Source: a virus (lineage: Duplodnaviria; Caudoviricetes). From it: a stretch of DNA of 64,000 bases. Of this stretch, positions 6,001 through 59,817 are shown one piece after another. Where the stretch lies: the IMG/VR virus record IMGVR_UViG_3300013947_000026, positions 38,883-102,882 of that record. One strand, written 5' to 3'. The position numbers and the translations under genes were made by a program. Position 1 is the stretch's first letter. Each line of letters opens with the position of its first letter. Under the pieces are notes generated by a model. The model saw only the letters and a list, made by a program, of their open reading frames with translations, made no database searches and was not told where the DNA came from.

Positions 6001-9000
6001 GATGAATTATTAGACTATCCTAACGATCAAGAGCTTAAAGATTTTGCTAGAGATCTCGTTGTTTATGCTTGGCTTACATCTGGCGAAAAGTCTGGATTTA
6101 ACAGATTCTTTAAGTATGTTCCTAACACATGGAAATTAAATAGCGGATTTATTGGACACGTAGAGTTTTGGTTAAATAAGTTTAACACTAATCTCGAAAG
6201 CGACGTAAGAAATGCTATCATAGATGATATACTTAGAAATAACTGGAACGATACAGACTTTGTTCCTCAGTATGATTATATTCGTAAAAACCAAAGAAAT
6301 TTTACAGATTCCGGTATATATGATCCTCAATTAATGAAACCATTTGCATTGTGTGGTTATACATAGAATGGTAAAGGTGAATGGGTTACAACTATTAATA
6401 GACTTGATAATGGTGAATATCCTAGATATATTACTGTAAAAGACGAATTGGCTACAAAGGACAATAATAACTCAAATAGAGCTCTTTATAGATTGGTTGG
6501 CGTTAGTAAGTTTGATGGGGTTAAAGACAAAGATACTAATAGTACAAGATTGACTGAAGTCCCAATATATGCATTATGCAAGAAGAGAGGTTTACATTTT
6601 AAAGGTAATGATATCTTTGAGTTTGGTAATAGCGATTTTAATTTTGGTATGAACTATATTGGTTATCAAGAAAATGATGTTCAATATGCTAAACTTATCG
6701 AAGAAGTCAAATAGAAGTTCTATATTGACGCAAAGAAACTTGAATCAAAAGAAACAAAGACCGAATCTTCTGTAAGAAACACTGGTGTAACAACAATTAG
6801 TTCTACTGGTAAGTCTGATGGCATTACTTATAATAAAGAACAATAGAGTGCTATTATAAATGCAGTATCTTTCTTAAAAACTAATACAGATCCAACATAG
6901 TATTATGTAATAGAAGGCAAGGCTGGTACAGGTAAAACTACTATAGCTAAAGAAATTCTTAAAGAATTCGATGATGAGTAGATATATGTTGCAGCTGTAT
7001 CACACAAAGCTAAGGGTGTTATAAAGAATAGTTTTGGAGAAGATGTTAAAGGTAAGAAGTTTTTTAGCATCGCTAGCTTACTTGGTATGAAGGGTATCAA
7101 TGATAATAATACGTAGACAACTAAATTCTAGGTTGGCGAAAAGATACCTTTGTTAGACAATCCCCCAGCATTGCTTGTTATAGACGAAGCCTCAATGATA
7201 ACAGAAGATGTCCTTAAGAAGATTATTGACATAAACTCTGCTCTTTCTAGACCGTTTTAGATGCTATTTTTAGGCGATATAGGCCAAATACAACCAATTA
7301 GAGACGATTAGAGTGAATTTTATAGAACTCACAAAGATCTTCTAAACAAGAAGTCCGACATATTTAATAGTAAGCATAAATCAAAGCTTATTACTAGAGT
7401 AAGACAGGGCGAAGCTAACCCTATATTACCGTACGCTGATTATTTCTGGGAAAATTCTCAAAAAGAAAATCCGGAACTTAACCCTACTTAGCATATCGTT
7501 AGAAATAACTAGATAACAGATAAAGGCTCTTTGCTGTTCTCTAATAGCGAAGGCGAGGTTTTAAATTCTGTAATTAAAGCTGTAAAGAACGCTGTTGAAA
7601 AAGGGCTTACAAACCACGTAAAGATTGTAACGTATCACGTAAACGAAAAGACAGAATTAAACAAGAAAATCCACGAAGCTTTATTTGGTAAAGGTTCTGA
7701 CTATTCTAAAGGTGATATGCTTATTCTTAATGCTCCTTACGATTTACCAGAAGTTAAGGCTACTATGGAGAATTCGTCCGAGATACAGATAAAAGGTATT
7801 TAGGATACAGATGTTGACGAGTTTGGTGTACATACATTATATCTCGAAACAAACGGTGTAGCTTATACAAGAACTGGTAATGAGTAGAAAGATTGTGTTA
7901 TACAAGTTGTTTCTAGGAACGATATTGACATGTATAATAAAAAACTACAAGAACTTGCTTCTAAGGCTAAAATGTAGACCAACAGAATATTGAAGAGGCA
8001 AGCTTGGTAGGAATTCTGGGAGTACAAAGGTCGTTATGCTGATATTGATTTTGGATACGCTATTACAGCTCATAAATCTTAGGGTTCTACATACGACATC
8101 GTTGTGGTAGACGAAAAGGATATTATGGGTACATCAGCTACATCAAATCAAGAAAAGTCAGAACTTATATATACAGCGTTAACTAGACCTAGAAAGACAG
8201 CCATTGTTATATCTAGTGTGCCTGTATCTAATCCTTATACAGGAGATATAGAGAATCCTTCTCTTCCTAAACAGACTGAGAAAAAGATTGAATATCATCC
8301 AGGAAACTGGACTAAACAAGAGGTTGACGGTAATCCTGACATATTGTATATAACAAATGCAGATTATGAGAATGTTAATTCTAGTAATATGTTATCCGTA
8401 TCTACTAGAAATCAATCCAAAACCTCTAATGGTATTATTGATAACGGCAACTGGAACGATTTAAACATAGAAGAGTTCAAGAATGTTATAGATGCTGAAT
8501 TCTAGGCTATTAAAGACGAATGGGATACAGGAAAGTACAGAAAGATATATTTGCCTTCTACTGGTCTATCTAATGGCAAGATTTCGCAGATTACAGAACA
8601 ACGTACACCTAAATTGTTTAAATATTTGTATGATAAGACTGTTGATTTGGCTAAGTATGTAAGCACGTAGCATAATAATACTCACAATGTTGCGTCTGAA
8701 TAGGCTTAGAAAACAGTATCTTTGTACAACAAATAGTAGAATAATCCACAGGATTATACAATGAACTCTGGCGGAGCTTATGGTGGCGATACATATTGGG
8801 ATGTTATAGGTAGACAATTTGGGCTAACAAAAATAAATCATTTTAAGCCTATTGATAATCAAAGTATGCCTAAGACGCTTAGAGATAGAAATGTTAAGCC
8901 TATTCCAATTACTCACGAACAATCTAACTATGCAAGAGAATAGATAAAATAGTTAACTGGGAGAGAATTACCTATGACTCTTGCTGGAGAGCTACTTGCT

Positions 9001-9456
9001 AGAGATTTTTATTAGGTAGATAAATCTGATGGTGTTTTCGCTGTAGCAAATATAACTAGTTCTTTAAATGCGGTAGAAGGTGGAACCAATATGGCCGTAC
9101 AAGTTGGTATAAAACAAGGAAAGCCTGTACATGTGTATGATCTTAATACTGAAAGCTGGTATAAATATAATCAATCTACCGGCAAATTTGAAGTTGAGGA
9201 CACTCCTATGCTAACAAAATCATTTGCTGGAGTTGGAACTAGAAATATTCAAAATTATAAAGTTAATAAGAATGGCTAGTGGGTTGATAGAGAAGGTTAT
9301 GTAGGATATGATAAAGCTCTAAAAGCTGCAAATGCAATAAAAGCTGTATATTAGAAGACGTTCTCTAAAGACGATTATAAAGTAAAGAATGAGCAAGAAA
9401 TAAAAGACGACCTTAAAGAACTCGGAAAGAGAAGATAGGACGACTGTAATAAATAA
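1..9456 (+). CDS. Giant virion RNA polymerase polyprotein (5'-truncated; exon 1 <1..3437, exon 2 4333..9456; TAG=Gln), with fused C-terminal RecD/Dda-like helicase and SLOG-like domains
   Basis: The ORF-track fragments share one frame per exon, and the stretches I translated are broken only by TAG; the frame closes at TAA 9454-9456. Motifs: INVADGSAFIT, IGYRIPTQAQSS, and catalytic GSD|FDIDK after intron removal, typical of crAss-like RNAPs. Confidence 0.9.
3438..4332 (+). mobile_element. Group I self-splicing intron in the RNAP catalytic motif
   Basis: Exon 1 ends in U (ggttcggat) and pairs with gttcaaacc (P1, U.G at the splice site). caatatcaa pairs with 3' exon ttgatattg (P10). Core elements: P aattgctgggaactc, Q aatcagcagcca, R gttcaacgacta, S aagatatagtctga; terminal G4332. 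Splicing restores DFDID. Confidence 0.93.
3600..4301 (+). CDS. Intron-encoded LAGLIDADG homing endonuclease (TAG read-through, about 233 aa)
   Basis: MKTKITKESRNLLIALLLGDG...IAIWYMDDG; 5 in-frame TAG, ends TGA 4299-4301. Missed by the ORF track. Confidence 0.88.
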
Positions 9457-9461
9457 TTATT

Positions 9462-12400
9462 ATGACGTGTTTGTTAAGAAATAAAGAAAACGAAGCGTTG
9501 TTAAATGAATATGAAGGTATTTTAGGTAGCCGATAGGCTGCCTATTATGCTTTATCATAGAACAACGGATATCCTTTAGATAAGGATTTAAATGGTAAAG
9601 ACTCCGCACTGTATAAGGATTTATTACAGCGTAATGGAGGTAGTAAAGAAAAAGCTATATTGGAGAAGGCTACTATATTTACATCTAAGTTTATAGAAGA
9701 TCACTATGACTGGACGCAAGATAGAGTAGAACCTACAATAGATGACTTAGATAACTATAATGGAGTATTGTAGTTTGACGCTAAACCATTTAGCTCTATG
9801 GCTCAAAATTATGGCTCTAGAAAGGATAATTTCATCCTTGCTTAGTAGTATGAAGGTAAGACTGTTAGAGAGGCTAGAGAGGCCTGGAATTAGGCAGAAT
9901 ACGAACGTTTGCACACTACTTTGGCAGATAGATTGGAGAAATCATTTGGTCTTACAAAATCTGTTGACAAAGAAGGTAATATTCTCTTGTCGTCTAAAGA
10001 TTTGTAGATATAGTTTGTAGATTACATACGTGGCACATCGTTAAAAGATATTACAAAAGCTTCTGGTTAGTATATATCTAATAAGCTTAGTGCTATAGGT
10101 AACGTTATTAAGGTAGCATTTGGTAGAAGCTCTGCAAAACTTAACACTGAGTCTCACGAGATTTGTCATCATTATCTTGATATGTTTCAAAAATCTTAGA
10201 TGGTGCAAAAAGCTCTATCTGACATTATGGAACAGTATAAGATAAAAAATGTAACATAGGCTGAAGAAAAGCTTGTAGATATACTTGTTAGTAGGGCTAA
10301 CGATATAGCAGAACGTACAAAAGCGTCTGATATATGGGAATAGTTTAACTCGTAGGTCAGAGAAGCTTTTAAAGATCTCGTGATAGATGATTCTAATAAA
10401 GAAATGCTGCATGAGTATTTAGCACAATCATTTTTACTTAATCTAGATATAAATCAAGTTAAAGTATCATCAGAATTTAACAAAGTAAGGCTTGAAAATA
10501 AAGCTAAATTCTAGCTAATGGCTGACAACACTCTTAGTAAGGATGAGGCTATATAGAGATTACAAGACTTATTTGATACATATGATCACATTGTATCAAA
10601 AACTCCTTCTTAGATAAAGATTTAGGATAAACTATTCTAGACAATGTAGAAGATGCAAAGATAGTCTGACGATGATGCTATATGTACATTTGTAAATTAT
10701 GTTGTAGACCGTATTGGTTTTATGGACTAGAATGGTAATATAACTGATGGATCTATATACAAATTCTTAGAGAATGCTAGAAAGAACAATTTTAAAGGCA
10801 TTACAGCACAACAGCTTATAGATATAGATAGAAATTCTATAGGATTCTTTAAGGAGATTTTAAACCAGATAAACTCTGCTAAAGTGTTTGGTAATTTTCC
10901 TTCTATATTAAAGACTCATATAGATTAGATAAATGCATCTATGTAGGATATTTCAGTATTATATAGAAACGCCTTGCACACATTGACTACAGATATAGTT
11001 GATCAATACATAGATGATAATATGAAGCTTGGTAACATAGATAATGCAAAGATTGTTGCAGAAGATTGGCTTTTAAGACAGGCTATGTATGGTGATATAA
11101 ACTGGCTTGAAATGTGGGCTGGCATGTACGGTAGATCTAGTTCTCCAATACTTAGAATACTCTATAACAAAGTTAATGATATCGACTATGATAGACAGGT
11201 ATACGTAAATAAAATTGGTCATCAAATAGACGCTCTTAGGAGAAAAGCGTGGAAAACCATGAGTAAATTTGTGCCAGGAAATCCAGAAATGGTTTTAATG
11301 GAGTTTGATAAAGATGGTAAGGCTACTGGTAATTTTAGAACCGAGTACAATCAAGGTTAGTACGAATAGGATAGGCGCAAAGAACAAGAGCGTCTTATGG
11401 AAAAGTATGGATACGAATAGGATGGAGATACAGGCGAGTTGATTGATAAACAAACAGGATGTAGTGTATATGATGAAAAGTGGCAATATACACCGTCTGG
11501 ATGGAAGCGCCCAAAGTATTATGACTATCTTGACGAGATGGACGCATTTGATGATGGTAGAAGAATAAAACAATATACCAGAAAATATTATCAAGAAATG
11601 CGTTCTGTACCAATATATGAACCAAAAACGAAGATTGACCCAATACCAGCAAATCCTCATGGTCATGGGTTGTCTCCTGATACGATTAGAGAAAAGTAGA
11701 GAATAGACGAAGATCTAAGATATTATGCTAAGCAAGCTACAAGAAAAGATGGCACTGTACATTATGAAGATCTTTCACCAGAACAGCAGAAAGCTTATTT
11801 ACTTGCAAAAGATGAGGCCGAGTAGCTATCTAACCCATTTTATCCTAACGGAGAGAAGAAGGAAGATGATAAATATAGAATGGCTATAGAGCTAAGATCA
11901 TTCAATCAATGGGTGTCTGATCAGACAAATTATGACTAGGATAACGCTGCGTTTATTCAAGAGCTCAATGCTATTACAGATCCAGTAAAGAGAGATCAAT
12001 TTATAAGATTAAATTCCACTGTATCTATAAACCCATTATTATATAAGCTAGCAGGAATGAGTGGGTCGCAGTATAATGATCCAATACTAAAATATTTGCA
12101 GAGTGGTCTTCTTACTTTAACAAAAGATAACAGAAGTATTTCTAAAGATTTTTCTAGACTACCACATGATTCTGAAGCATTCTTTGCAAATATGTAGTAG
12201 ATAGAGCAAGACATAGAAGACTCTGGTAAATCTGGAGTTAAATCTAATTTTAAAAAGTATTTTACATACAAACTTGCTATGTAGCCTGGCTTAAATAAAA
12301 GTAAGCTTGATTTTTTCAGAGATAAATATTTAGATAGAGCTAAAAATGGGGAACTTAATCAGTTTTTTGGGCAGGATATCACAACTCTATCTGATACCGA

Positions 12401-14945
12401 TCTTAGATTTCTTATAGATAATAGATTCTTCTTTAAGAATACAAAGAAAGGTCCATAGCCACTTGATTGCTTTTATGAAATAACTCCAAAGGCTAACACT
12501 TTTATATACAATGGTTAGACTTATAATTCTATTATATTAAAACCTACTGGAAGATTTTCTAAAAGAAGTAATGCGTCGCAAAGTAAAATATATGATGATA
12601 GATATAATTTTCAAAGAAAAGATCCAGGATATTAGCTTACAGATAAATATAAAGACAAATATTTTGATTAGGAGATAAACGGAAATTCAGACATTCGTGC
12701 TTTGTATGATATGCTTGTAAATACTATGAAAGAAATGTATAGCAAGATTCCAGCTATTAAGTCAGGATATAATAACTCACTTCCTTAGATAGAAGGCACT
12801 ACAGCTATGCTTCTTTCAAGAGTGTTTAGAGGCCCAAATTCAGCAAAAGACACATTTGGATATCTTGGTAAATCTATGGTTAGCATAATGCCTAGTGATA
12901 CAGATCTTGAGGTAAAGGGATCAAAACCAAGGATAACTCCTAGCGGTGAAGACGAAAGCACGGTTCCTATTAGGTTTGTCAAGCGATTAGATCATCCAGA
13001 ATACATAAGTTCGTCTATATGTAGCAATGTTATACAATTTGTAGACATGGCTAAGAACTATGAGGGTAAAATGGAACTTTTACCAGAGATACTTGCTATA
13101 CAAAAATAGCTTAATCCAGAATATAGAGAAGATAAATATAAAAGTTCTAGATCAGGAAATGCTTATAAGCATTTTAGAAAGATGGATAAATATAGCAGTC
13201 AACGAAGCGAAGAAGCAATAAATACACTTCTTGAAACTTAGTTCTACGGCAAAAATGTTGTATCTGGTCTTACTAAAAATAACGAGAAAGGAGATGCTGC
13301 TAGAGTTTTGATATCAAGAGCAAAGAGGTACGGGTCTATACATATGCTTGGTCTTAATACCGCTTCTATGGCTGTTGGTGCAATGGATGCAAATATGTAG
13401 ATATTTAAAGATTCTCTTGTAGGCAAATATCTTACAATGAAAGACTTTAGGTGGGCTATTGGTAAACTCCTTAATCCTAGAACTATATTAAACAATTTTA
13501 GAGGATTAGGTAAAGCGTAGGCTACAACTAAAGAGGGAGCTTTGATGTAGATGAACTAGATAAGTAAGAACAACTCTGAAATATTTGAAGGTTTACACAA
13601 AGGGTGGTTCAGAAGATTTTGTCTTAAATATTTAATGATGGGAGGTTATACGTTAGGTGACTATATGAATAATTCTATTGTTATGTTATCTTTCTATCAT
13701 CATACAAGGCTTTTTGAAGATACATCATATGCTGGTGTTAAACCTGGATTTTATACTCGTAATTAGCTTATAAAAGCGTTTACTGATGCCGGATATACAA
13801 AGAAGTAGGCCAAATCAGTATATTCTGGTTTGCACATAACTTTGTATGATGCATACGATTGGCATCCAGGAGATTATCTTCCAACTGTTAATTAGGCATT
13901 CTAGAAATATTTGAATAGCAAGATAGCAAAGAATGTAAGAAATAAAATTATTTAGAGATCTGCTTACTATAACGGAGTTATGCCTGCTACAGAAGTGTCT
14001 AAAGCTAGATAGAATTTGTATACAGCTATGATGTTTATGATGCGTAATTTCATTGTTGGCAACGTATACGAAAGAATGTAGAATGCAAATGATTACATTG
14101 TAAAGGAGCTGGATGAAAACGGAGTCCCTGTAAAAAATCCAAAAACAACAGAAGAGGCTCAAAGTTATGGTTATTACAACTATGAAACTGGAGAAATAGA
14201 ACGAGGTCATTATACATCTATAGCAAATTTGTCTAGAAGATATATAACTAATTGGATATATGGCATACGTTCATTTTTATCTCATGATCCAGCAAAAAAG
14301 CAAGAATATTCTGATAAAAGAGAAAAGTTAAAAGGTATAACATAGCTTGAAATAGAAGGAGTCAAAGCTGTTTCTGCAGATGTAGCTATTTGTGCGGCAG
14401 TAACGTTAGCTTCTGTATTCTTAAAAATGAAAGCTGATGACGATAAATCTTGGTGGATACAATATTTATATTTAATATCACTTCGTCTTGCAGAAGCTAG
14501 AGGAACAAATCTTGATCCTACTACAGTTATGGATTTCATCGGATCTATTACAACATTACAGTCTGTATGGAATGATTTTGGTACAGGTTTTACATACATA
14601 CTTGATGCTATGGGGTTAACTGGACATAATCCAACAGATACAGTAAAGTCTGGCGCGTATAAAGGGTCTAGCAGATGGTTCCGTGATGTTATGAAAATGG
14701 TTCCATTTAGTAATCTATATGAAGATATGAATTACAATACACTGCGAGCTAAACAAAACTACTATAGAAATAAATATTGGTATCTGCATCTATTTGGAAA
14801 TGATTCTACAGGTAATTCGTCTGGAGAACCAGTTATGCCAGATGATTATAATAATACAGATAATTCATTAGGAAGTGGATAGTTTGATCCGAACCAAGAT
14901 TTTGGTGGAGGCTCATTTGATGCTGGAGGAAGTTTTAATCCATAA
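9462..14945 (+). CDS. Large (about 1827 aa) virion/ejection-type protein downstream of RNAP (TAG=Gln)
   Basis: ATG 9462; track fragments 10974, 11439, 12807 and 14427 all lie in this frame; ends TAA 14943-14945. Function inferred from position next to the RNAP gene. Confidence 0.75.
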
Positions 14946-28297: not shown

Positions 28298-28909
28298 TTA
28301 TGATTCCATATGAACGTTTACAGATACATCAGCCTTTGGCTTGCTATTAGACTTCTCGTCATAATAGCTAGTTACTTGCTGCTCGTTACGACTAATTGTT
28401 GAAACAAGCTGAGCTTTAGCTTTCTCACATTCAGCTATAATCTTATCAAGGCGAGCAATCTCTGCACGGTTAAGTGCATTAAGATATACGTTCATCTTCT
28501 TAGGATCTGAGAATACCATCTTCTTCTCAGGATTTTTAATAGCCTCCTTTACTGCCTCCTCTGTTGTCTTTCCAAAAGACTCAAGGGTTGATGCAGGAAT
28601 CTCAATCTCTTGGTCTGTATCAGGATTGAGCTTGCAAACTACTTCACCAGCGATATTCTCTTTAATGCGCATGTCTGACACAGTAGTAGCAAAAATGTTG
28701 AAACGACGAGGTGATCGGTTGAGGCAAAGATCAGCATTACCGCTTTGCTTAATCTGTTCAATTACCTTTTCGTAATCAGGATTATACACTCTGGTCTGAG
28801 GGCTAAATACGTCCTGACCAAAAAGATTACCACCGATCATACTCAGTGGGGTACGATTTGCTTTAATTGTTTTTTCCACGATGTTAATATTAATATCTGC
28901 CATAATCAT
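28298..28909 (-). CDS. Hypothetical protein
   Basis: 203-aa ORF. Confidence 0.7.
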   Translation of the reverse strand: MIMADININIVEKTIKANRTPLSMIGGNLFGQDVFSPQTRVYNPDYEKVIEQIKQSGNADLCLNRSPRRFNIFATTVSDMRIKENIAGEVVCKLNPDTDQEIEIPASTLESFGKTTEEAVKEAIKNPEKKMVFSDPKKMNVYLNALNRAEIARLDKIIAECEKAKAQLVSTISRNEQQVTSYYDEKSNSKPKADVSVNVHMES

Positions 28910-28914
28910 ATCCT

Positions 28915-31030
28915 TTTTGATATCGTTATTGATTAACTAACGATATGATTTTTAAACTATGGTATATTCTTTGGCTATACCTTTGCCGTTGTTTATTGAA
29001 TAAAGCAACGCTGATACGAAGATACTCGATGCTATTTTGTTTTCATAAAGACAGTTTTACTATTGTAAACGCTTTAATAGAGACTTAGTTACACTCTTCT
29101 TATCTCAACAATAGGGAGGTAAGCTTGTAACAGGAATTGTATACGTATGATACAATTAACATTTACTGGATTCATCCAGGCCCATCGTCAAAAGCTTTGA
29201 ATGCTGTCTTGACATAATCAAATGTCATATCTATGTTTATTTTGCAGTTTTTCTGCTTATAGATTTTTCTAACTATAATGTCTCTAACTTCGTTGGCAAA
29301 ATTTCCTTTCGGACTAATGTTCGTAGAAATTAGAGATTACATCCAACAAAAAGAGATGTAGTATTTCGGTCATATTTCCCCTTATATACCATACCGAATT
29401 ATTAAACTACATGGTTGTTATTGAAGCGGATATCCTCCACTGCTAACATAGAAGCGTCTGTCAGCTAAGATTCCTCTCTGCGATACTAGCTATTGGCATA
29501 TATCCAGTGGTTGGTTATCGGAATGTCTCAGGATCAAACCCTTCACAGACTTTACGGCTTTTTATATCTTTGCTGATATTTGTAATTTTTCTATACCGGT
29601 ATTACTACCTCCTATTTATAGTGCACGAATATTGGGAATTCAACCCATACATTCCATCTTGTCACCCACTTATAACGTGATATACATATATAGAGACAGT
29701 ATATATGTATAACATGCACCAGTTGTTTTACAACGTTGATATAAGCTGCCCATCAATTTCTTGTATTGCTTTGAACCTTTGTGTTTACATATATTGTTGC
29801 GCAATATACTTTAGCATGGTTTAGCACATCGGTTGGCACTCGATTTCTCCACCTCAAGCTCGTAACTACAATATACGATTTTCTCTATGGAGTGACATCA
29901 ATTTTTATTATACATGTTATTTTTGAATACCATTAAATTTTCATAATTTATATCTAAATATGTATATTAAACTCATACATAATATACCAGCTTACTACTC
30001 TGTAGAGACTATGTAATATTGCATAATAAGACATAAATAAATTATTAGTTTAATTTCTTTCTGGATTAAGTGGAGGTCAAATGGTCTTGGCTAGACATAT
30101 CTCGAATCAACTTAAACCTTATATTTTTGCCATTTCTTGTTTTAGGATAGCTCTCCATCAATTTTCTTTGGTTATAACGGAACCATCGATCATAGCCTCA
30201 TAAGTTATTTAGTTCTTATGGGAAATATATATTTCGTAATCGCTTACCATTATTACTATATATATTGAAATAGACTTTCACCGCGGTCTTCATCCGCGTA
30301 CGATACTTATAATAAAGCTTCGATTAAGGGGTTGCCCTACCCTTGTGCTCATTTTACTTTTATATACCGCTTGAACGAGCAAAGCCTGGCGGTCAACAAT
30401 CAGGCACTTCTACCCCATCCCTGGCACCCCTTCAACGGAGTTGCACTGAATCGAACAGTAAGGTTTTGGTATAGCCAGCAAACTCATTTAGTTTACTCTG
30501 TGTGGTATTATCCCCACAGTATTGATGTTGTTTCTTCGGCCTTTATATTATCCTTGGACAGATAAAAACACTACCTACAGCTTATTGATACTACTATTTG
30601 CTTTGGAGTCCTCGGTTCTTCCAGCACCATGCACCATACCATGTATGCAATTCTGTTCACCTACTGGGGACACAAATAGTTTTTTTCTCGTGTAACGTTC
30701 GTACATATTTAGTATCATCATATGTAATTCCGATACGGTTCATTATGCTCTTCTTGAGACTTATGCGTTTTTAGATTACACAACCTCATCCTGCTTATCT
30801 CCAATACGGTTCTCATAAGTCCAGTTGTGTAATCTTAGGAGTTGATACAACGCTTCTCCTACTTGTATCTTAACGTTTCAATGTTTGATACATTTCATCC
30901 TACCTTTTGAGTAATCTCGCTCTGCAAGACAGAGTTAACATATTCTCGGATCAAGTTATTTAATTTGCACATAGGCTAATGGGACCTATTATAAGTGCTT
31001 ACCTAAGTTAAGTATATAGGGTTCTTGTGT
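28915..31030 (-). ncRNA. About 2.1-kb ORF-poor region; candidate large structured RNA or ncRNA cluster
   Basis: No credible ORF; several helices, including a 12-bp stem 30773-30784/30824-30835 with a crossing 8-bp pairing. Strand inferred from flanking genes. Confidence 0.5.
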
Positions 31031-31438
31031 TTACTTACATACCTTAGAGATGATTTGTTTATAATCATTTAACTCTCCCTTACGAATGGTATAGTTGTGA
31101 TTAATGGAGTCTGCCTTTTCTCCAGGTTCTGCAATCCACAGAAGTGGTACATACGACGTATCTGTCTTCTTGATTACAGTTTTCTTAACAACAGTCTTTA
31201 TAGGCTGTTGCTTATGATTACAAGATACAGGAACTTTTACTTTAATAGTATCATGCACTGTATCAGGATTAGCACTTTTAACATTATTGTTGAGCATATT
31301 GCTCAGTTGTGGTTGCGGAACAGTAGATGCTGCTACTGTTTGCAGATTCGATGAAATGTCAGCCTTTCCCATGCTGGCAATATTAGTACCAACAATAAGA
31401 AAAGCTATACCTAACAACGATGTAACTAAATTTTTCAT
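31031..31438 (-). CDS. Hypothetical secreted/membrane protein
   Basis: Signal-peptide-like N-terminus. Confidence 0.65.
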   Translation of the reverse strand: MKNLVTSLLGIAFLIVGTNIASMGKADISSNLQTVAASTVPQPQLSNMLNNNVKSANPDTVHDTIKVKVPVSCNHKQQPIKTVVKKTVIKKTDTSYVPLLWIAEPGEKADSINHNYTIRKGELNDYKQIISKVCK

Positions 31439-34762: not shown

Positions 34763-35260
34763 TTATTTGTTATTGAACGTTCTTTCGATGTATTTTATGA
34801 ATCCATCCAAATATTCGTCGACGTCTGCATTTCTGCGAATATAATTTTTGCAATTATCATCAAAGACGCCAGAGATTGAATAAATACACTCTATGTATTT
34901 ATAATGCTTTTGAAACCATATAACCCATGTTTGTACCCATTTCCAGAAGTTTAATTCTCCTTTTTCTAGGTTAGGATTAATACTTTCCATATTTATAGAA
35001 TTAGCAAAATTAAATTCTTGCTTTCCTTTATGTATACCAAGAGCTTTTCTTACAGACGAATTCTTTTCATCTTTTGTAGTATATATAGCTACATTCTCTT
35101 TATATACTCTTTCTATCCACCTCTCTTTAACTCTGTACTTTATTCTATTTTCTGGTTCACATTGTAAATTTACAATACGTCCAAATTCTGTACACCATTT
35201 AAGAGCGATGTTGACGACATAAGGACACCTGTCCCGGATCATCGCTTTATATCCCTTCAT
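34763..35260 (-). CDS. Hypothetical protein
   Basis: 165-aa ORF. Confidence 0.65.
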   Translation of the reverse strand: MKGYKAMIRDRCPYVVNIALKWCTEFGRIVNLQCEPENRIKYRVKERWIERVYKENVAIYTTKDEKNSSVRKALGIHKGKQEFNFANSINMESINPNLEKGELNFWKWVQTWVIWFQKHYKYIECIYSISGVFDDNCKNYIRRNADVDEYLDGFIKYIERTFNNK

Positions 35261-35339
35261 AATTAAATTGGAGAAGTGTAGAGACTCGAACTCTACTACC
35301 CCAAACCATAAGGCGACGGGCCCTTTCTTCTCTCTCCAC

Positions 35340-35545
35340 TTTGGTAGGAAACACCTAGACTTTACTTACGCTACGTGAGTATAATCTACAATGTTGTTAA
35401 CATTGCCTTTTATATTTAGTATAGTGTTTATATGTATTTATCTCCTCCGCCTGTCAAAACCAAAACACGCCCTATTTAATATTTTGTGGACGTGAGCGGA
35501 ATTGAACCGCTGTCCAAGCAGATTATTTCATACACACTTTACTTT
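35340..35545 (-). ncRNA. ssrA: Circularly permuted (two-piece) tmRNA-like gene
   Basis: Acceptor piece ...GGAC-AGCGG-UUCAAUU-CCGCU-CACGUCC-A (ends 35487) precedes coding piece GGGCGUG-UUUUGGUUUUGAC... (starts 35472). G3.U70 pair; tag ORF 35407-35366 GNVNNIVDYTHVA*. Outer boundaries approximate. Confidence 0.8.
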
Positions 35546-36013
35546 CTTTGTAAATGCTCTAATGATCAGTCAGAACATTCGATTTAAACCACTTTATTTG
35601 CGTTCTAAGGCACTTTTAAATAGCTTGTGGTTAATTACTCCATTTACTTTTTATGATGTCTTAGAACGCATTAAATCATGGTTTTAAAATACACAGTGAC
35701 CCTCATGATACTATGATACTTAGAGGACTGCGTTCAGCATTTTTGATATTACATGCAGGGTTCACAATATTGAAGTTATCTTAAAGTAATTCTCCCCGAT
35801 ACGAAGATACGCACATGTCATATTTTTTGATCTACTGCCCCTAATTATACGTGTAGGGTCACGTCATTCTTTCCCTATCATGATACTAAGATACTTAGAT
35901 AGGAATGTCAATTCATTCTTTTACTCTTTAAGTGTCCTTGCCACTCACTAGTGCATCGCTGTAATCTCTTGGAGCTTGGGCGTGATACGATGATACTTGC
36001 CCTGGAAAGAATA

Positions 36014-37808: not shown

Positions 37809-37878
37809 TTTGATAATATTTTAGAGATTTGACAAATGTTAATTATCCGGGATTTATAGATACACGGAATCATCTTTG

Positions 37879-37951
37879 TGATACATATGAGACTCGAACT
37901 CATGACCCATAGATTAAAAATCTATTGCTCTGCCAACTGAGCTAATGTATC
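37879..37951 (-). tRNA. tRNA-Lys(UUU)
   Basis: GATACAT-TA-GCTCAGTTGGCAGAGC-A-ATAGA TT TTT AA TCTAT-GGGTC-ATGAG TTCGAGT CTCAT-ATGTATC-A. Confidence 0.93.
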
Positions 37952-48389: not shown

Positions 48390-48465
48390 GAGTCTATTAG
48401 TCAAACGGTAAAGACAACCCGATATAAAGGGAATAGTTAGTGGGTTCGACTCCCACATAGACTCC
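48390..48465 (+). ncRNA. tRNA-like RNA with an aberrant anticodon arm
   Basis: 8-bp acceptor GAGTCTAT/ATAGACTC, D arm, and T arm GTGGG TTCGACT CCCAC; anticodon arm does not fit a 5-bp stem with 7-nt loop. Confidence 0.55.
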
Positions 48466-48649: not shown

Positions 48650-49207
48650 ATGGAGTTAAAATTTAAGAGACTTGAGGACAATGCCGTCCTCCCTATTCGT
48701 AGCACAAAAGGTGCTGCAGGAATTGATTTGACTTGCATTAAGATTGAAACAGCACTTAATGAAGCAAATCAGCTAATGTTGGTTTACCATACAGGATTGG
48801 CAGTAGAGATTCCTGCCGGATATGTTGGTTTACTTATACCACGCTCTAGTATTTGGAAAAAATCATTATGGCTTACTGACAATGTTGGCGTTATAGACTC
48901 TGATTATAGAGGCGAGATTGTGGCTTATATGAAGGCTACTACAGATGTTGTGCCTGCAATATATAAGCAAGGTGAACGTTTTTGTCAGTTGGTTATTGTT
49001 CCGGTACCAGAGTATACAATTTCTGAAGCAGCAGAGCTTTCTGACACAGAAAGAGGAGAGAACGGTTTTGGTTCTACAGGTACTGGAAATGTAAACGAAG
49101 TTAGCGCAGCTACGGGAACTGAGGCACAGGCTAGCGAACAGCAGCAGTCCGCACCAGAGCAAGCGGCGGCACAAGATAGTGCTGAGGTAAGTGGAGAGCA
49201 GGCCTGA
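48650..49207 (+). CDS. dut: dUTPase (trimeric)
   Basis: AAGIDL, PRSS, GVIDSDYRGEI, RGENGFGSTG; start placed at MELKFKRL. Confidence 0.95.
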   Translation: MELKFKRLEDNAVLPIRSTKGAAGIDLTCIKIETALNEANQLMLVYHTGLAVEIPAGYVGLLIPRSSIWKKSLWLTDNVGVIDSDYRGEIVAYMKATTDVVPAIYKQGERFCQLVIVPVPEYTISEAAELSDTERGENGFGSTGTGNVNEVSAATGTEAQASEQQQSAPEQAAAQDSAEVSGEQA

Positions 49208-49218
49208 TCTGCTTACAT

Positions 49219-49251
49219 AAAGGGGATTACCGAAAGGTAGTTCCCTTTTTT
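49219..49251 (+). terminator. Intrinsic terminator after dut
   Basis: aaggggattacc gaaa ggtagttcccttttt. Confidence 0.75.
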
Positions 49252-49286
49252 ACTGTTTATATATAAACAAAATAGTATTAAATAAT

Positions 49287-50723
49287 ATGAATTTTAAGAA
49301 ACAACCATTAAAAGGTGTAGAGATACATGGCGCTCCACAAGTTGGTACACGTACTGTTAATATCTTAATGGGCGAACATGCTAACGAATTCGTGCGTGGT
49401 GATATTATGGATGCAAATGCCGTATTGCAAGCATTTGATGAGCTTAAGGGTAATGTTGACGATAAACACGACACGCTCGAAGAGCTTGTAGATGAAATCC
49501 ATACAAATGCTACTGTAATTAACGGAGCTATTAACTACACACATAAAGTCGAAGCTGAATCAAAAGCTAGAGACGAATAGGAAGCTAAAGATAGAACTGA
49601 CGCAGACAATGCTCTTGGTCAAAGAATAGACGACGAAGCTACCGCTCGTAAGGCTGCAGATGCAGCAGAGCTATCTAGAGCAACACAGGAAGAAGCTAAG
49701 TTAGACGCAGCTATTAAGGCTGAGGCTAATACTAGAAAGCTTAATGACGATACTATTACTAGTGCGTTAAACGCAGAGATTACTCGTGCTAAGGCTGCAG
49801 AAAAAGATAATAGTAATGCCATTACTGCAGAAGCTTCTACAAGAAAGTCTGAAGATGATGCCATTAAAAACCTCCTGCAAAATGAGACAACTAGAGCTAC
49901 TAATGCAGAGAATACTCTTCAAAGTAATATTGACACAGAGGCTGCTACTAGAAAGAAGAATGATGACACTCTTACAACTAATCTTAATAATGAGATTACA
50001 AGAGCCAAGGCGGCAGAAAAGGCAAATAAAGATAGAATTGATGTTATTGATGGAGATTCTAGTACTGAAGGTTCTTACAGAAAAGCTATAAAAGATCTTA
50101 TCAATGGTGCACCAGAGGCGTACGATACGTTGAAAGAGATTGCTGACAAACTTGCAGAGAATGATGACCTTCATCAAGCTATTGAAGAGGCTATCGCAAC
50201 AAAGGCTTCAAAAACAGAATTAAAGACTGAATCTGATAGAGCTAAGCAAGCTGAGGCTGATAACGAAGCTGCTATTACAGCAGAAAAGAATAGAGCCACA
50301 TAGGCTGAAAGTGATATTACGTCTAACCTTAATAAGGAGATTGATAGAGCCAAGAAAGCAGAATAGGCTAATACTACAGCTATTACAAATGAAGTAACTA
50401 GAGCTACAGCTAAAGAAACAGAACTGTCTAATGCTATTACATCTGAAGCTGCTACTGCTAGAGCTGCCGAGAAAGCTAATTCTGATAAGATTGCACAAGA
50501 GACTACTGATAGAAAAAATGCCGATACAACTTTAAATAATGCTATCAACAAGGAAATATCAGATAGAACTACGGCGATTTCAAATGCTACAACAACATTG
50601 AACAATAGCATTAGCACTGTTAGTAACAATCTTGCAAATCTCACAACAACTGTAAACAACATTAGTAGTACAGTATCTAATATTACGGCAATCAGTACTG
50701 ATTATATTAACGGTTTAAGCTAA
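49287..50723 (+). CDS. Coiled-coil repeat, tail-fibre-like protein (478 aa, TAG=Gln)
   Basis: Repeated EITRAKAAE / EASTRK units; frame closes at TAA 50721-50723. Confidence 0.75.
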
Positions 50724-50729
50724 TAAGGT

Positions 50730-53534
50730 ATGGAAGAAAATATTAAAGTACAAGCAGAAGATACATAGAAGGTTGAGTATCTTGATAAGAACGGCCTTGA
50801 TTTGTTGTGGACTAAGGTTAAGAAAAATGCACAAGATCAAGTTGAAGTAGAATATAATCGTGCTAAAGGTAAGGAAGATGAAATAACTGCTAGTATAAAA
50901 GAAGAGGTCAATAACCGTGCAGAAGCTATTAATAATCTCAAATACATCCCATATACACAGAAGGTTAATTAGACGTATACAATTAAAGATGGATATTTAG
51001 AATTCGATGGTGGCTACGGAATCGGTGTAACTAATAGTTCGTTAACTAATACTAATTCATATATTGATAGTTAGTATATTAAAATCTCTAGTAATAATAC
51101 AAAGATTAACATTAACGCTTATGATAAAAAAATAGCAATAAGCAATGGAGCTAACATTGTGTCAATATCACCTACAGGGATTTCTAAATCACTCGGTAGT
51201 CATACAGAGGCGTTCTCGACTAATGGAGGAGTAATAGATACTGCCACATTTGCATTAAAGAGTGAGTTAACTGATTATGCTAAGAAAACAGAGCTGCCTG
51301 AAGCTGTAAAAGTAGACGATGTCAGAGTTAATGAAGAATCTGTTGTAGTTAATAAAATCGCCAACATTGATTTGACAAAGTATGCTACACAACAATATGT
51401 TACAGATGCTATAAATGCAGATCACAACACAACTAATATTAATCTGTATAGGAACTTTACGAATTTTGATCTTGATTAGGATGGTAATGGTTTGACTAAT
51501 CTGTATGTAACAACAGATAACACAGGTTTATCTGTTGCAGCTATTGGTTCAAAAAATTCAACCCAAACTTCTTTAGGCTAGATACAAATAGGAGCTGATA
51601 AGTCAAATCTTGATCTTGGATGTTATATAAAGTTTTCTAAAGGAACAGATATCGGTTTAACATTAACTAAAAGAGGAATTATTAATCCCAGTTATTATGG
51701 AGATGAAGAAGGATTTTATCACGTTTATACAGCTAATGGTGGCGAAATCAACCTGAAAGAACATTTTGTTGAAAACAATATTGAATCACGAGAAACCAAC
51801 GCAACATATTATTCGCTTTAGTGCCATAAAGATGATAATGATAATTGGAAAGAATTTGATCTCAAAATTAAAAATACTGGTATTTATATTGGCGATGGAA
51901 CAACAACAACGAAAATTAATCCAAATGAAATAACTACAATTAATGCAATTAATGCAGGAGATGTCTCCATTAATGGGAACGGCGACTATATAAGTATTGT
52001 CAAATCGGGAAAAAATATAGGTAGCCCAGAACATGCGTTTACAACAGATGGTGGAACCGTAGACCTTTCAGAGTACGCCAAGAAGAGCGAAATCACTGCA
52101 AGTGGTAATGTTGATGATGTGCAAATTAATGGCACAAGTGTCGTAGAAGACAAGGTAGCTAAGATTAAACTTGCTACTAAAGATGACTTCGGAGTTGTAA
52201 AAGTTGGAAATGGTCTTGATGTTAAAGATGGTGTTGTTGGCGTTGATACAGATGCTTTTGCCGATTTATTGTCATATGGTATTGAATGGGATACAACTGT
52301 AGCCAACCCAGCTTGTACGAGAATTGGTAATCCGTTACTTCATAAATCATTACCAATTTAGTCTAAATACAAAGGCTGTCTTGTTAAGAATGGTAAAGTG
52401 AACTATTATCTTAATCCTAATGATTGGTCAAAAAAAGCTGATGGAACAGCATCTGTGCTTGATGGTACCGATGGAGATGTAATGGTTCGCATTCCTAGAT
52501 TCTACGGCAAATCTGGTTCTAATGGAGATAAGAGATGGGTTAGAATATCTTTGTCACAAATTGACTCAACATGGGTTGAAATACCAGAGATGTTTGTGAG
52601 CGCATATAGAATTACAACATATAGTGATTCTGGTACTACAAAGGTAGCATCTGTTGTAAATACGTCTACAGGATATCGTGGTGGATCAAATAGAAGCGCT
52701 AATGATCAATATTTGGATACAGATAAATTTAGAACAGACCTTGGAAAACCTAGAACTTTATTATCTAGAGCAGCAATGCGTACTAATGCTAAAAACTCTG
52801 GTCAAGAATTATTGTGCTATGAATTCTATAAGTGGATATTCTATTGGGCTTATGTAATAGAGTATGCTAATTTTAACTCACAACTAGAATTTAATTCTAA
52901 TCTTACTTCAGATGGCTATCATCAAGGAGGATTAGGACCTGGTTTGACTTCATGGGATTACAGTATGTGGAATAAGTATAATGAACATAACCCATTAACC
53001 CCTTGTGGGTATACTAATGAATTAGGAAACTTTAGTGGTGTAAAATCATTAGTTATTCCAGAAACTAAGATAGATGATACTACAACGATTAGTACGAAAA
53101 CTCTTAGCGTAAATAGGTGGAGAGGATTTGAAAACCCATTTGGAGATATATGGACCAATCTTGATGGTGTAACTATAATGCATAATGCAGCTGATGCTTT
53201 ACTAGAAGTATACACCACAGCTGATAGTTCAAAATTTAGTGACGATATTGACATGGGTGGGGATGTTCATTTTGAAATTCCTAAAGATGGATATATTAAA
53301 GAATTCAATTTAGGTGAAACTGGAGAAATTATACCTTCAGATGTTGGGGCATCAGAATCTACATATAAATGTGATTATCATTATTGCGATGCTTCCTATT
53401 TAGGAAATAGAACACTCTTGGTGGGTGGTAGCGCTAATAATGGTGGTCAGGCCGGCCTTGGCTCTTTCCACTCTTATAGTGGTGTTGGTGGTGCCTATTC
53501 CAATGTTGGCTTTAGATCCGTGATAAGGGCATAA
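50730..53534 (+). CDS. DGR target protein: tail fibre / receptor-binding protein with C-terminal CLec-like variable domain (934 aa, TAG=Gln)
   Basis: One frame broken only by TAG; GFENPFGDIW...LLVGGSA...SNVGFR C-terminus carries the VR. Confidence 0.88.
53411..53512 (+). repeat. DGR variable repeat (VR)
   Basis: About 100-nt copy of TR with 20 mismatches by manual alignment, all at TR adenines. Confidence 0.95.
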
Positions 53535-53572
53535 TTTTGAATTTGGTTTTTATTCTTTATATTGGAAATTAC

Positions 53573-53674
53573 AAAACTCTTAGTAGGTAGTAACGCTAAT
53601 AATGGTAGTAAAGCCAGCCTTAGCTATTTCAACTCTAATAATGGTGTTAGTAATGCCAATTCCAATGTTAGCTA
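53573..53674 (+). repeat. DGR template repeat (TR)
   Basis: AAT/AAC/AGT-rich non-coding copy of VR between the target gene and RT. Confidence 0.95.
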
Positions 53675-53789
53675 TTTATTTTAATTTTTGTTAAGAATAA
53701 CAACCTTACCTCTTGGTAAAAAATAACGTTTATTAACCACACCGTGTTGGTAGGATCAATCCGAAGACTCGGTATTAATATAAAAAGAT

Positions 53790-55028
53790 TTGAAAAGAAT
53801 AGGGAATCTTAAAGAAAAGATTTGCACATTAAATAATATTTATATAGCAGATGAAAATGCTAGATTAAATAAAACAAAGAAATATGGTGTATAGAAACAT
53901 GATAAAAATAGGGATGAAGAAAACGAAAAGTTATTACAAGATTTTATAAATCTAACTTACAGAACATCTTAGTATAGCACATTTAAAATATACGAACCAA
54001 AAGAACGTATAATTTATCGTCTACCATATTACCCTGATAGAATTGCGCATCATGCAATAATGAATGTCATGGAAGGTATTTGGAGAAAAATATTTATTAA
54101 AAATACATACTCTTCAATACGAGGTAGAGGCATACATAAATGTGCCAAAGATTTATATAATGATTTGCAGAGCAATATTGAAGAAACACAATATTGCTTA
54201 AAGCTTGACGTTCGTAAATTCTATCCATCTATAGATCATGATATTTTATATAAAATAATACAAAAGAAAATAAAAGACAAGTGGTTATTAAAGTTATTAA
54301 AAGAAATAATATATTCAGCAGACGGTGTTCCAATAGGTAATTATTTGTCGCAATTTTTTGCGAATTTATATTTAACATATTTTGATCATTGGATTAAAGA
54401 AAATGTTAGATGTAAATATTACTACAGATACGCTGATGATATAGTGATTCTTGATAGTAATAAAGATCATCTTAGAAATATATTGATAGCTATAAAATTT
54501 TATTTCCACAATATTCTAAAATTAGAAATAAAATCAAACTATCAAGTATTCCCAGTAGAAGATCGTGGTATCGATTTTGTTGGATATATATTTAGACATA
54601 GATACAGATTACTTAGGAAATCCATAAAAATAAAAATATCTAAACTTATTCGTCGATATATGAATAAGCGAATTTCTAAGTGTGCATTCGAGTCGAGAAT
54701 GACATCATATAGAGGGTGGCTAAAATTTTGCGACTCTAAACATTTTTCGTACATAGTAGAACATTTATCAAAATATAGACTATCTACATGGAATGGTGAT
54801 TTAACATAGATAACAAATCTAAATAATAAAATGCTCTACGTAATTGAGATCTTAGTTAGGCAAAAATATTTTGAGATACATGCTTTAAGAAATAACAAGT
54901 AGTTGATTATTAGGTCTAAAAACAAGAGGTTGTATAAAACATTAAACAAATTAAGTTTACCATATATTTTTAAATATGAACACAATAAGTTCCAATATAA
55001 AACCAAGCGCCATAAAACAACTCGGTGA
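53790..55028 (+). CDS. DGR reverse transcriptase (TTG start, 4 TAG=Gln, about 412 aa)
   Basis: MKRIGNL, EPKERIIY...PDRIAHHA, LKLDVRKFYPSI, GVPIGNYLSQ, RYADD, GIDFVGY. Confidence 0.93.
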
Positions 55029-55329
55029 TAACACATATTATTACAATTATAATATTACGAGCGAACAGAGAACAAATGAAAATGGCGAACAAGAAACAAT
55101 CTATAATTTTATCTAGGTGCATCTTACAGGTATTCCAGACTATAAAGATTGTATTAGAAATATTATTAGAGAATATGTTTCACAAACAGAAGAATTTGAC
55201 CTTATCAACAGCTATAATAAAGTATAGATTACTGGTGAGAAAAATTCTGAAGATATAAAAAAGTATACAGATTATATTAATCTGCTTGAAGAAATTAAAA
55301 CGAATGTTAAGAAAGATTTTAACATTTAA
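54976..55329 (+). CDS. Small hypothetical protein (117 aa, TAG=Gln)
   Basis: ATG 54976, 2 TAG, TAA 55327-55329; overlaps the RT 3' end. Confidence 0.65.
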
Positions 55330-55332
55330 TCT

Positions 55333-56187
55333 ATGATAACGGTAATTATAACAGCTTATAATGTAAGCAAAACTATATACAAAGCAATATAGAGTTGCAT
55401 AAATCAGACTTATAAGGATTTAGAGATATTAATTATTAACGACTGTTCTACAGATAATACATTATAGATTGTATAGTCTGTAAAAGATCCTAGAATAAGA
55501 GTTGTAAATAATTCTGAAAATTTAGGTGCAGGTATGTCTAGGAGAATAGGTACTAAAGAAGCGAAAGGTGAATACACTGTATTCCTAGATGGAGATGATT
55601 ATTTAGATAAAGACTACATATAGACATTATACGATTTGGCTATAAAAAATAATGCCGATGTAGTATCTAGTGGTGTTAGAATAATAACCGACGATTCTAA
55701 AAATGAAATAAAATCTAAACAATTTGGAGAATATAATAGCTTAGACTTTATATTAAAAAACGAAGCTGTTACAAGTTTTGTAAGCAATTGGCTTAATAAT
55801 AAAATTATACGTAGAACTATATGGAATAAAGTCGATTATAGTGATAGAAGATATGTAGAAGATACACAAACAGCATATTATGTTTTATTTTATTCAGGTA
55901 AAGTTATAGATACTCCTTATGTTGGATATAACTATGTATAGAATCATGATAGCTTAATACATACAGCAGATGAAGTAAAAAATAAAATATATCAAGCTTT
56001 ATGTGCAAAAGATATATCCACATTTGTTGAATAGCATAAAAAAGAAGATTATAAACTTTCTGCAAAAGCTTTCTTGTTTAGAATACATGAAATGAAATCA
56101 ATATAGCTTACAAATGAAGTGATATGTAAATATAAAGATGAGTTAGCTGAATTGTTCGCGTTTTTGCTTCATATTATGTAGTCTTAA
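55333..56187 (+). CDS. Glycosyltransferase family 2 (TAG=Gln)
   Basis: ITVIITAYN, INQTYKDLEILIINDCSTD, GEYTVFLDGDD, RYVED. Confidence 0.9.
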
Positions 56188-56221
56188 TTTTTGTTTTTGT
56201 TATAATTATTGAATTTTATTT

Positions 56222-56272
56222 AGCTAGGTCTTAATGAAAGCATGACGGGGTTCGTTGCCCCGCCTAGCTCAA
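56222..56272 (+). ncRNA. tRNA-like minihelix (acceptor stem plus T arm)
   Basis: AGCTAGG...CGGGG TTCGTTG CCCCG CCTAGCT. Confidence 0.45.
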
Positions 56273-56522
56273 CAGGCTCTACCACGCCTCTTTCTAAATG
56301 CGTACCAGGATAGAGCTTTTATCCCTCCTAGATGAAATATACTAGGACTCGCGTAGTAATACGCTAATATTAAACTTGACTAGGATTAATCCGATCTTAG
56401 TCTTATATTATTTTACTTAAACTTGTAGTAAAAAGCTTATTTAATCTTTAGCTGTGGCGCTTTAGGCGTGGTCTTCAATGACGCCACAGTGCTATAATTA
56501 ATAATAATTTAAACAAATTAAC

Positions 56523-59303: not shown

Positions 59304-59812
59304 TGTTTGACATAGTATAGAATAAAATACAATTAAGTACAGAAGATCTAGCCATTCCTCCATTTAAGAATTATTATAATAATGCCAAAAATAAACAAGA
59401 TGCTCTTAAGAAGATAGAATTTGTTGTATGGCGTTATAAATGGAATAGTCCCTATGAAGCTTATCCAGAAAAAGAGAGAACATGGAGAGTGGCTAAAGAT
59501 GTGCTTAATGATGAGAATTATATACCTGATGACACTGTAAAAGAATTAGCAAAGAGGTTTCAGGAGTTTCAAGAGACTCCTGCTACCAGATTGCTTAAAT
59601 CTTCTAAGAGCGCAGCAGAGGGAATAATGAATACAATGGATATGTACGCTGAAGAAGAACTTGATATAGATACTGCTAAGAAGCTTTCCGCAATACTAAA
59701 AGATGTTAGCGGTATTATTAAGTCTTTGGATCTTGCTTCAAAACAGGCGAAGGCAGAACAAGCTGAAGCTGGTAGAGTTAAAGGTGGCGGCGTTATTGGT
59801 ATGTACGAATAA
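59303..59812 (+). CDS. Hypothetical protein upstream of TerL (possible small terminase)
   Basis: ATG overlaps the previous TAA; one TAG; function from position only. Confidence 0.55.
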
Positions 59813-59817
59813 CTATT

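Follow-up and report, generated by a model that had tools for sequence, protein, structure and literature searches.

A question raised by the 64,000-nucleotide stretch of phage DNA considered here (IMG/VR record IMGVR_UViG_3300013947_000026, positions 38,883 to 102,882; hereafter, the window) is what is encoded by some 2.1 kb in which no gene is apparent. This gap, at 28910-31030, lies between genes encoding proteins of 135 and 203 amino acids (aa; 31031-31438 and 28298-28909, respectively), such that, on the minus strand, it is bordered by the stop codon of the 135-aa gene at 31031 and the start codon of the 203-aa gene at 28909. Unless otherwise indicated, coordinates are those of the window and features of the gap are on the minus strand. 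An initial annotation, based on inspection of the sequence, had proposed that the gap contains a very large structured RNA or RNA cluster that could not be assigned to a known family, had pointed to an Rfam search, the collection of syntenic relatives and six-frame translation with recoded codes as checks, and had named a replication origin or a decayed gene as alternatives. The proposal is now supported by conserved synteny, the lack of a coding signal and strand-specific covariation in three domains. The element in the gap is real, conserved, non-coding and structured in a strand-specific manner, and, as judged from the comparative analysis described below, probably represents a new family of multi-domain, highly structured non-coding RNA of ~2.0-2.1 kb, read from the minus strand.

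The coding potential of the gap was addressed by translation in six frames. Under code 11, the longest stop-free run is 98 codons. Phages of this crAss-like group recode one stop codon in their late genes; in the gap, TAA, TAG and TGA are each frequent in all six frames, such that no single recoding of a stop codon opens a gene. Indeed, the absence of a credible ORF (open reading frame) reported in the initial annotation was confirmed for all frames, both with the standard code and with TAG, TGA or TAA recoded, and the alternative codes tried (TAG=Q, table 4, TAA=Q and all pairs) were rejected, as no gene emerged. Codon phase was considered in a strand-independent manner by aligning 40 representative copies of the element and measuring, in 150-nt windows, the conservation deficit of one phase relative to the other two. 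The contrast so obtained in the gap had a mean of 0.021 and a maximum of 0.060, as compared to 0.175 for the adjacent 203-aa coding sequence of the same loci, which served as control. The element is demonstrably not protein-coding.

ORFs on the plus strand, i.e., antisense to the flanking genes, were likewise rejected as genes, given that they present no codon phase, that their frames are not conserved and that this strand is poor in stop codons. At some positions, as many as 90% of the 40 representative copies contain an antisense ORF of 40 codons or more; these are common in the gap because the plus strand is T/C-rich and hence stop-poor. Such ORFs have entered GenBank, where one hypothetical protein each is annotated in the homologous gap of phage cr7_1 (locus L003, 5301-5783, plus strand) and of a Bohxovirus (locus L007, 4327-4833, plus strand), in both cases opposite to the strand of the flanking genes, while thirteen small ORFs on both strands are listed in the gap of Dulem virus 42 (locus L008, 3163-5171). 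As codon-phase conservation is lacking, the ORFs annotated inside the gap are probably spurious.

The distribution of the element was next considered. BLAST comparison of the gap with GenBank phages led to crAss-like phages of the family Suoliviridae, subfamily Oafivirinae, to which the window, taken from a 102,882-bp virus record, is assigned; the nearest relatives are Burzaovirus cr124_1 and cr7_1 (80-82% identity over 97% of the query). A syntenic ORF-free gap of 2.0-2.2 kb is found in Burzaovirus, Cacepaovirus, Chuhaivirus, Bohxovirus, Buhlduvirus, Dulem virus 42, Buchavirus and Buorbuivirus; the same layout was seen in cr124_1, cr7_1, cr131_1 (Cacepaovirus), cr130_1 (Chuhaivirus), a Bohxovirus, Dulem virus 42 and cr273_1 (Buhlduvirus), as well as in two members of the subfamily Loutivirinae, namely, cr52_1 (Buchavirus) and cr4_1 (Buorbuivirus). 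The place, length and sequence blocks of the element are kept across at least eight genera. Two DNA patterns drawn from conserved blocks of the gap each occur in at least 100 IMG/VR contigs, mostly of 95-106 kb. With nhmmer, full-length copies of the element, 1976-2305 nt in length, were recovered from over 100 phage contigs of ~100 kb; 79 of these copies are distinct, grouping into 40 clusters at an identity threshold of 95% and into 16 at one of 70%. Across 21 clusters, 12.7% of the alignment columns are at least 95% conserved. Between genera, the flanking 203-aa and 505-aa proteins share 28-37% and 23-30% identity, respectively; by this comparison of sequences, the element is better conserved than are the proteins that flank it.

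In the Loutivirinae gaps, nhmmer detected colinear matches to the 5' domain (expectation value, E, ~1e-15) and to the 3' core (E 2e-11 and 3e-8) of the element. The two gaps concerned (locus L300, 3346-5454, and locus L301, 6911-9057) share 75-79% identity along most of their sequence and resemble the Oafivirinae element in the 5' and 3'-core parts only. The Loutivirinae version may represent a sister family of RNAs in which another central domain has been substituted. When one genome per prokaryotic species was scanned, the sole true match was a 101.5-kb contig binned with a Segatella copri metagenome-assembled genome, the remaining matches being chance hits in unrelated genomes. That contig (L117; JAJWOH010000001.1, 101,563 bp) appears to be a complete crAss-like phage that contains the element, and a related phage species bears the name Buchavirus copri. 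Together, the bin and the name offer a weak hint of Segatella copri being a host.

With syntenic relatives thus collected, the structure of the element could be considered comparatively. RNAalifold, applied to the full-length alignment, returned ~50-60 helices, many with 3-6 pair types per position, and a strict scan found seven antiparallel covarying runs versus no parallel ones. Three domains were tested on independent MAFFT alignments, using slid controls and 500 shuffles, and covariation was found in each. In the 5' domain (D1; 30707-30992; alignment A4, 40 sequences, 21 pairs), 95.9% of cells are paired (slid controls, 38-52%), 89 cells are changed on both sides (6-25) and the covariation score is 0.383 (at most 0.131). 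The corresponding values for the central core (D2; 30262-30582; alignment A3, 40 sequences, 45 pairs in 10 helices) are 93.9% (33-43%), 327 (40-50) and 0.519 (below 0.10), while those for the 3' core (D3; 29507-29922; alignment A6, 24 sequences, 26 pairs) are 94.8% (18-59%), 85 (8-23) and 0.433 (at most 0.15). None of the 500 shuffles reached the observed values, except in the case of the count of further pair types in D2, reached by 5 of 500. The element thus contains dozens of helices and two compact H-type pseudoknots that are maintained by compensatory substitutions.

Both pseudoknots lie in the central core. In the first (30346-30393), one stem is formed by ACCGC (30393-30389) and GCGGU (30370-30366), and the other by UUGCUCGU (30382-30375) and AUGAGCA (30352-30346); the two stems are 95.4% and 94.7% paired, both with double-sided changes, and the A-rich loop UAUAUAAAAGUAAA is invariant. 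The second (30272-30298) consists of a stem between CGCG (30298-30295) and CGCG (30285-30282) and one between AGAC (30289-30286) and GUCU (30275-30272). These stems are 98.6% and 100% paired, with compensation taking the form of CGCG replaced by CCCG/CGGG and of AGAC/GUCU replaced by AGUC/GACU, AGGC/GCCU or AGCG/CGCU. When the window was searched with R1, a covariance model of the central core, one copy was recovered, at 30262-30407 (125 bits). The hairpin previously noted at 30500-30520 is present and covaries.

The 5' domain comprises a UUGAUCC/GGAUGAA helix, a UCUCAAA hairpin, a hairpin with a GUGAAAA loop and an AGCGU/ACGCA helix, the last of which encloses the stem-loop (30773-30835) containing the perfect 12-bp helix that had drawn attention to this region. 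The arms of that helix, at 30773-30784 and 30824-30835, proved exact. It is the long form, found in the clade of the window, of a variable-length stem closing the nearly invariant loop UGAGAACCGUNUGGNGA (UGAGAACCGUAUUGGAGA); in other lineages, the same loop is closed by shorter, different stems, with compensatory changes. A pseudoknot had also been predicted here, between cataagtc (30814-30821) and gacttatg (30758-30765). Both segments are found exactly at these positions and the GACUUAUG/CAUAAGUC pairing is possible, albeit unproven: it is kept, with one G-U pair, only in the long-stem clade (the window, cr124_1, cr7_1 and cr131_1), has no counterpart outside that clade, and its 3' strand overlaps two supported helices. 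The reported duplication of atacggttc was recovered at 30733-30741 and 30804-30812 (on the RNA strand, GAACCGTATCGGA and GAACCGTATTGGA), with the second GAACCGUAU copy falling in another invariant block.

The first universally conserved hairpin, at 30973-30987, presents a 7-nt loop (CUCAUUA; CCCAUUA in the window), is 99.4% paired and shows changes on both sides in three of its four pairs; no shared Bacteroidota -7/-33 motif was seen upstream of it. A lineage-specific 5' hairpin at 31003-31047 (CUAAGGUAUGU ... AUAUACUUAACUUAG) spans the stop codon that ends the upstream 135-aa gene. Its arms covary between the window, cr124_1 and loci L005 and L268, with the stem CTGAGGTATGATAG being present in the 5' hairpin of the latter two loci, and no promoter-like motif was found upstream of this hairpin.

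In the 3' core, the blocks GAGUGCCAACCG, GUGGGUGACAAG, UUCGUGCACUAUAAAUA and AGCCGUA...UUCGAUAA are invariant. The hairpin predicted at 29680-29710 is found here, at 29688-29704, where it covaries and bears the conserved loop CUGUCUC, as is the T-loop-like GGGUUGAAUUCCC, placed at 29634-29646. The T-loop-like hairpin likewise covaries, with stem variants GGG/CCC, GAG/CUC, GUG/CAC and GAGG/CCUC and loops UUGAAUU, UUGAAAU, UUAAAAU and UGGAAUU. The less conserved 3' part of the element (28950-29506) contains covarying hairpins, such as those at 29212-29225 and 29088-29131, and a variable spacer. A further hairpin that had been noted at 28987-29010 is present in the window, its occurrence being confined to close relatives. 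One copy of AGUAUCnnnGUAUCA (GATAC-N3-GATAC), at 28990-29020 in the same variable 3' part, is also kept only in close relatives (alignment A1). Additional hairpins occur in individual lineages at fixed insertion points, in the manner of other large RNAs.

The orientation of the fold was assessed in terms of both energy and base pairing. Consensus folding of the minus strand gave -293 kcal/mol, as compared to -252 kcal/mol for the plus strand, the ratio of G-U to A-C in pairs predicted on both strands is 284:131, and several paired positions are predominantly G-U. On the basis of the G-U bias and the better minus-strand energy, the folded strand is taken to be the minus strand, that of the flanking genes. 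The strand bias argues for an RNA rather than a double-stranded DNA element, and we infer that the element acts as RNA. A scan of the gap for promoter and terminator consensus sequences gave nothing beyond shuffled expectation. Given this result and the covarying hairpin that straddles the upstream stop codon, the simplest inference is that the element is transcribed by read-through within the operon, possibly followed by processing.

The relation of the element to known RNAs was examined by cmscan. At Rfam gathering thresholds, the only matches in the window were to transfer-messenger RNA (tmRNA) and transfer RNAs (tRNAs) outside the gap; the gap itself gave only chance-level matches at E up to 10, and nine diverse homologues gave no recurrent match at E up to 1. 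Accordingly, the earlier view that the element cannot be assigned to a known family holds for the window and for these homologues. GOLLD, ROOL, OLE, HEARO and raiA were considered and rejected, with none of these, nor any other Rfam 15 family, giving a covariance-model match, and ARAGORN found no tRNA in the gap. A literature search that included crAss-like genomics papers found no description of the element.

The genes around the gap, among them regulatory and replication genes, are all on the minus strand, in the order sigma factor, small gene, a gene for ~500 aa, small gene(s), gap, a gene for ~200 aa and a gene for ~195 aa; the phage sigma factor lies three genes upstream of the gap. The immediate neighbors are protein genes, the nearest RNA genes being 4-7 kb away. 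Comparison of the neighboring proteins with PHROGs, Pfam and the ESM Atlas gave nothing usable except for the sigma factor. In cr7_1, gp51 (L003, 3381-3989), a homologue of the 203-aa protein, contains one in-frame stop codon under code 11, which could be due to recoding, sequencing error or a pseudogene.

A further structured feature is found at the junction of the gap and the 203-aa gene, where a bipartite hairpin (28905-28949) holds the ribosome-binding site of that gene. The hairpin consists of 7-10 bp, is 94-98% paired and shows eight pairs changed on both sides. In its outer stem, upstream bases pair with GGA and the spacer between the Shine-Dalgarno (SD) sequence and the AUG codon, while its inner stem bears the loop AUCA. 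The spacer differs in nearly every lineage and its partner strand changes in step, giving AUCAUAU/AUAUGAU, UUUCAU/AUGAAA, CUUAUGUC/GACAUAAG, GUUUAC/GUAAAC and others, with UCAAAAAGGA being invariant throughout. The hairpin is unique within the window, and a similar one is kept in the Loutivirinae. It looks like a translational operator of the 203-aa gene. In the 5' domain, a similar invariant strand, UCAAAAGG, adjoins a closing helix, such that operator and 5' domain share a UCAAAA(A)GG strand beside a closing helix.

As for what such an RNA might do, we favor a trans-acting scaffold or ribonucleoprotein (RNP) core, together with the linked operator, a reading that is speculative and falls somewhat short of being probable. 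Akin to GOLLD and ROOL, the RNA would be an ornate scaffold or RNP core produced in the early to middle stages of infection, and may work with the syntenic proteins that always flank it, namely, that of 505 aa upstream and those of 203 and 195 aa downstream. The hairpin at the 3' end would occlude the SD-AUG spacer of the 203-aa gene and, acting as a translational operator, would couple synthesis of the 203-aa protein to the RNA. Operators of ribosomal proteins mimic sites in ribosomal RNA (rRNA). The UCAAAA(A)GG likeness suggests, as a hypothesis, that the giant RNA is bound by a protein that would also repress the mRNA encoding it. A bolder version, which we consider doubtful, is that the element represents the largest structured non-coding RNA family yet in a bacterial virus, a single rRNA-sized molecule of ~2 kb with a tertiary architecture of its own that would form, across the Suoliviridae, the core of a phage RNP machine or an RNA-only assembly working with the flanking proteins.

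Several observations weigh against the reading as a giant structured RNA and against the mechanism proposed for it. When two 800-nt pieces of the single sequence were folded, the energies were no better than those of shuffles (z = -0.40 and -1.80); support for the structure is comparative, not thermodynamic. The covariation-supported helices all span at most ~200 nt, with the longest supported closure, AGUGC/GCACU, spanning ~190 nt and being almost invariant. Candidate long-range helices (r270-281/1484-1495, r621-626/1446-1451, r1093-1098/1389-1394 and r1108-1114/1256-1262) were rejected for want of compensatory support, the first being disrupted by uncompensated changes in four lineages. A large number of the best conserved blocks show no variation and no apparent pairing, and model R1 does not detect the two Loutivirinae gaps. 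On the protein side, no recognizable RNA-binding domain was found among the neighboring proteins in PHROGs, Pfam or the ESM Atlas, and the AlphaFold2 model of the 203-aa protein, with a mean predicted local distance difference test score of 53.5, offers no usable fold. The likeness of operator and 5' domain extends over only 8-9 nt, which chance could give, and the notion of an autoregulated RNP, resting on this resemblance and on synteny, is speculative. Finally, the Suoliviridae have no cultured member (PMC10136315).

The local range of the supported helices, together with the failure of the long-range candidates, is what one would expect of the main rival to a scaffold or RNP core, namely, that the gap contains a fixed array of independent smaller structured RNAs or cis-elements (processed small RNAs, decoys or tRNA-like pieces) rather than one molecule. 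Such an array would also account for lineage-specific insertions and deletions lying between modules and for the Loutivirinae having lost the central core, or having it in unrecognizable form, while the 5' and 3' modules persist. Nonetheless, an array appears unlikely. Despite their deep divergence, the 79 copies agree in order, spacing and total length (1976-2305 nt), and neither promoters nor terminators were detected inside the element. In addition, the AGUGC/GCACU helix closes a subdomain of ~190 nt, and the many invariant single-stranded blocks between helices suggest tertiary contacts.

The operator raises a second alternative, that the element is a giant cis-acting 5' leader of the 203-aa and 195-aa genes, serving as a sensor or timer with the ribosome-binding site hairpin at 28905-28949 as its sole output. 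The 203-aa gene always follows the element, no terminator lies between the two, and the covarying hairpin that occludes the SD-AUG spacer is found directly downstream. Still, leaders and riboswitches fall, to our knowledge, far short of 2 kb, the operator is set apart from the conserved core by 100-150 nt of variable, poorly conserved spacer, and no covarying pairing connects the two, such that we regard a leader as improbable.

We hold it to be very improbable that the element functions at the DNA level, be it as a replication origin, a packaging site or single-stranded DNA hairpins. The gap adjoins the replication module and its folding energy is ordinary, both of which would fit such a role. 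By contrast, the several pairs that are mainly G-U would correspond to C-A mismatches on the other strand, the strand bias is 284:131, and H-type pseudoknots with A-rich loops are an RNA architecture. Moreover, no iterons or repeats were found except for one 13-nt duplicate, and the cumulative GC skew continues across the gap without changing direction, so that the replication origin named in the initial annotation is not borne out, just as the decayed gene is at odds with the lack of codon phase. Least credible of all is an ORF-less self-splicing intron or mobile ribozyme, or a decayed or recoded protein gene: despite delta-group crAss-like phages being rich in group I introns (PMC10136315), the presence of AGGUAAGU-like bases near the 5' end and the opposite-strand ORFs called by GenBank annotators, no group I or II match appears at thresholds as permissive as E = 10, the ORFs on either side are intact, distinct genes that have a stop codon and a ribosome-binding site of their own, one fixed locus is occupied in every genome with the core model finding one copy in the window, no codon phase exists on either strand, and the antisense ORFs reflect a stop-poor, T/C-rich strand rather than conserved frames.

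A trans-acting scaffold or RNP core can be set beside known large RNAs. Like the large ornate phage RNAs, the element is longer than 500 nt, non-coding and phage-encoded, with extensive covarying structure that includes two pseudoknots with support for both stems; it is not found next to a tRNA island. GOLLD (RF01998) is similarly phage-encoded, very large and endowed with covarying structure, pseudoknots and parts of greater and lesser conservation, and both GOLLD and the element have tRNA genes in their wider neighborhood. The two differ in that no sequence or structure match was found and in that the element lies within an operon, between protein genes, in gut phages of Bacteroidota. Many GOLLD members exceed 800 nt (PMC12286853); the element, at ~2.1 kb, is over twice the size of GOLLD, which is the largest of the known ornate phage RNAs. 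ROOL (RF03087), of ~580 nt, is again an ornate RNA of phages and prophages with multiple pseudoknots and no known protein partner, as is the case for the element, which gives no Rfam match to it, is several times larger and has another genomic context. ROOL is common in gut and rumen samples, and cryo-EM has shown GOLLD and ROOL to form RNA-only cages, with these recent structures having rested on covariation-rich families (PMC12286853). Group I and II introns, themselves large structured RNAs, are common in delta and zeta crAss-like genomes (PMC10136315); the element, unlike these, interrupts no gene, matches no intron model and occupies one fixed locus per genome. For the pairing of a giant RNA with an operator of the 203-aa gene, the OLE RNA, which is large and structured and acts together with dedicated proteins from adjacent genes, and the operators of ribosomal proteins serve only as working analogies, with no homology implied; the likeness between operator and 5' domain is limited to UCAAAA(A)GG beside a helix.

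Large ornate RNAs of bacteria and phages, such as GOLLD, ROOL and OLE, are rare, and their functions are a long-standing question. In the present case, the operon context, three syntenic proteins and a linked putative operator provide handles for testing that GOLLD and ROOL lack. With crAss-like phages being among the most abundant viruses of the human gut and the Suoliviridae lacking a cultured member, the element is in turn a marker of this family and may hold a key to its biology; if the reading is correct, a giant RNA is present throughout an abundant family of human and animal gut phages.

Elsewhere in the window, a permuted tmRNA was identified at 35205-35576 (minus strand), 4.3 kb upstream of the element and in the same operon direction; Rfam RF04321 matches at 35366-35534 with 74.3 bits, and ARAGORN likewise calls a permuted tmRNA, with a tag peptide. 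A tRNA-Lys is found at 37878-37951. On the opposite strand to the element and 23 kb away, a reverse transcriptase is encoded at 54006-54590 (plus strand; Pfam RVT_1, 71 bits, in a 278-aa frame). As compared to the dense block at 14-46 kb, regions 1-13800 and 49000-64000 contain few long code-11 ORFs, a pattern that fits stop codon recoding in late genes. Lastly, a tRNA at 48391-48464 (plus strand), called by Rfam and not by ARAGORN, could be a suppressor tRNA.

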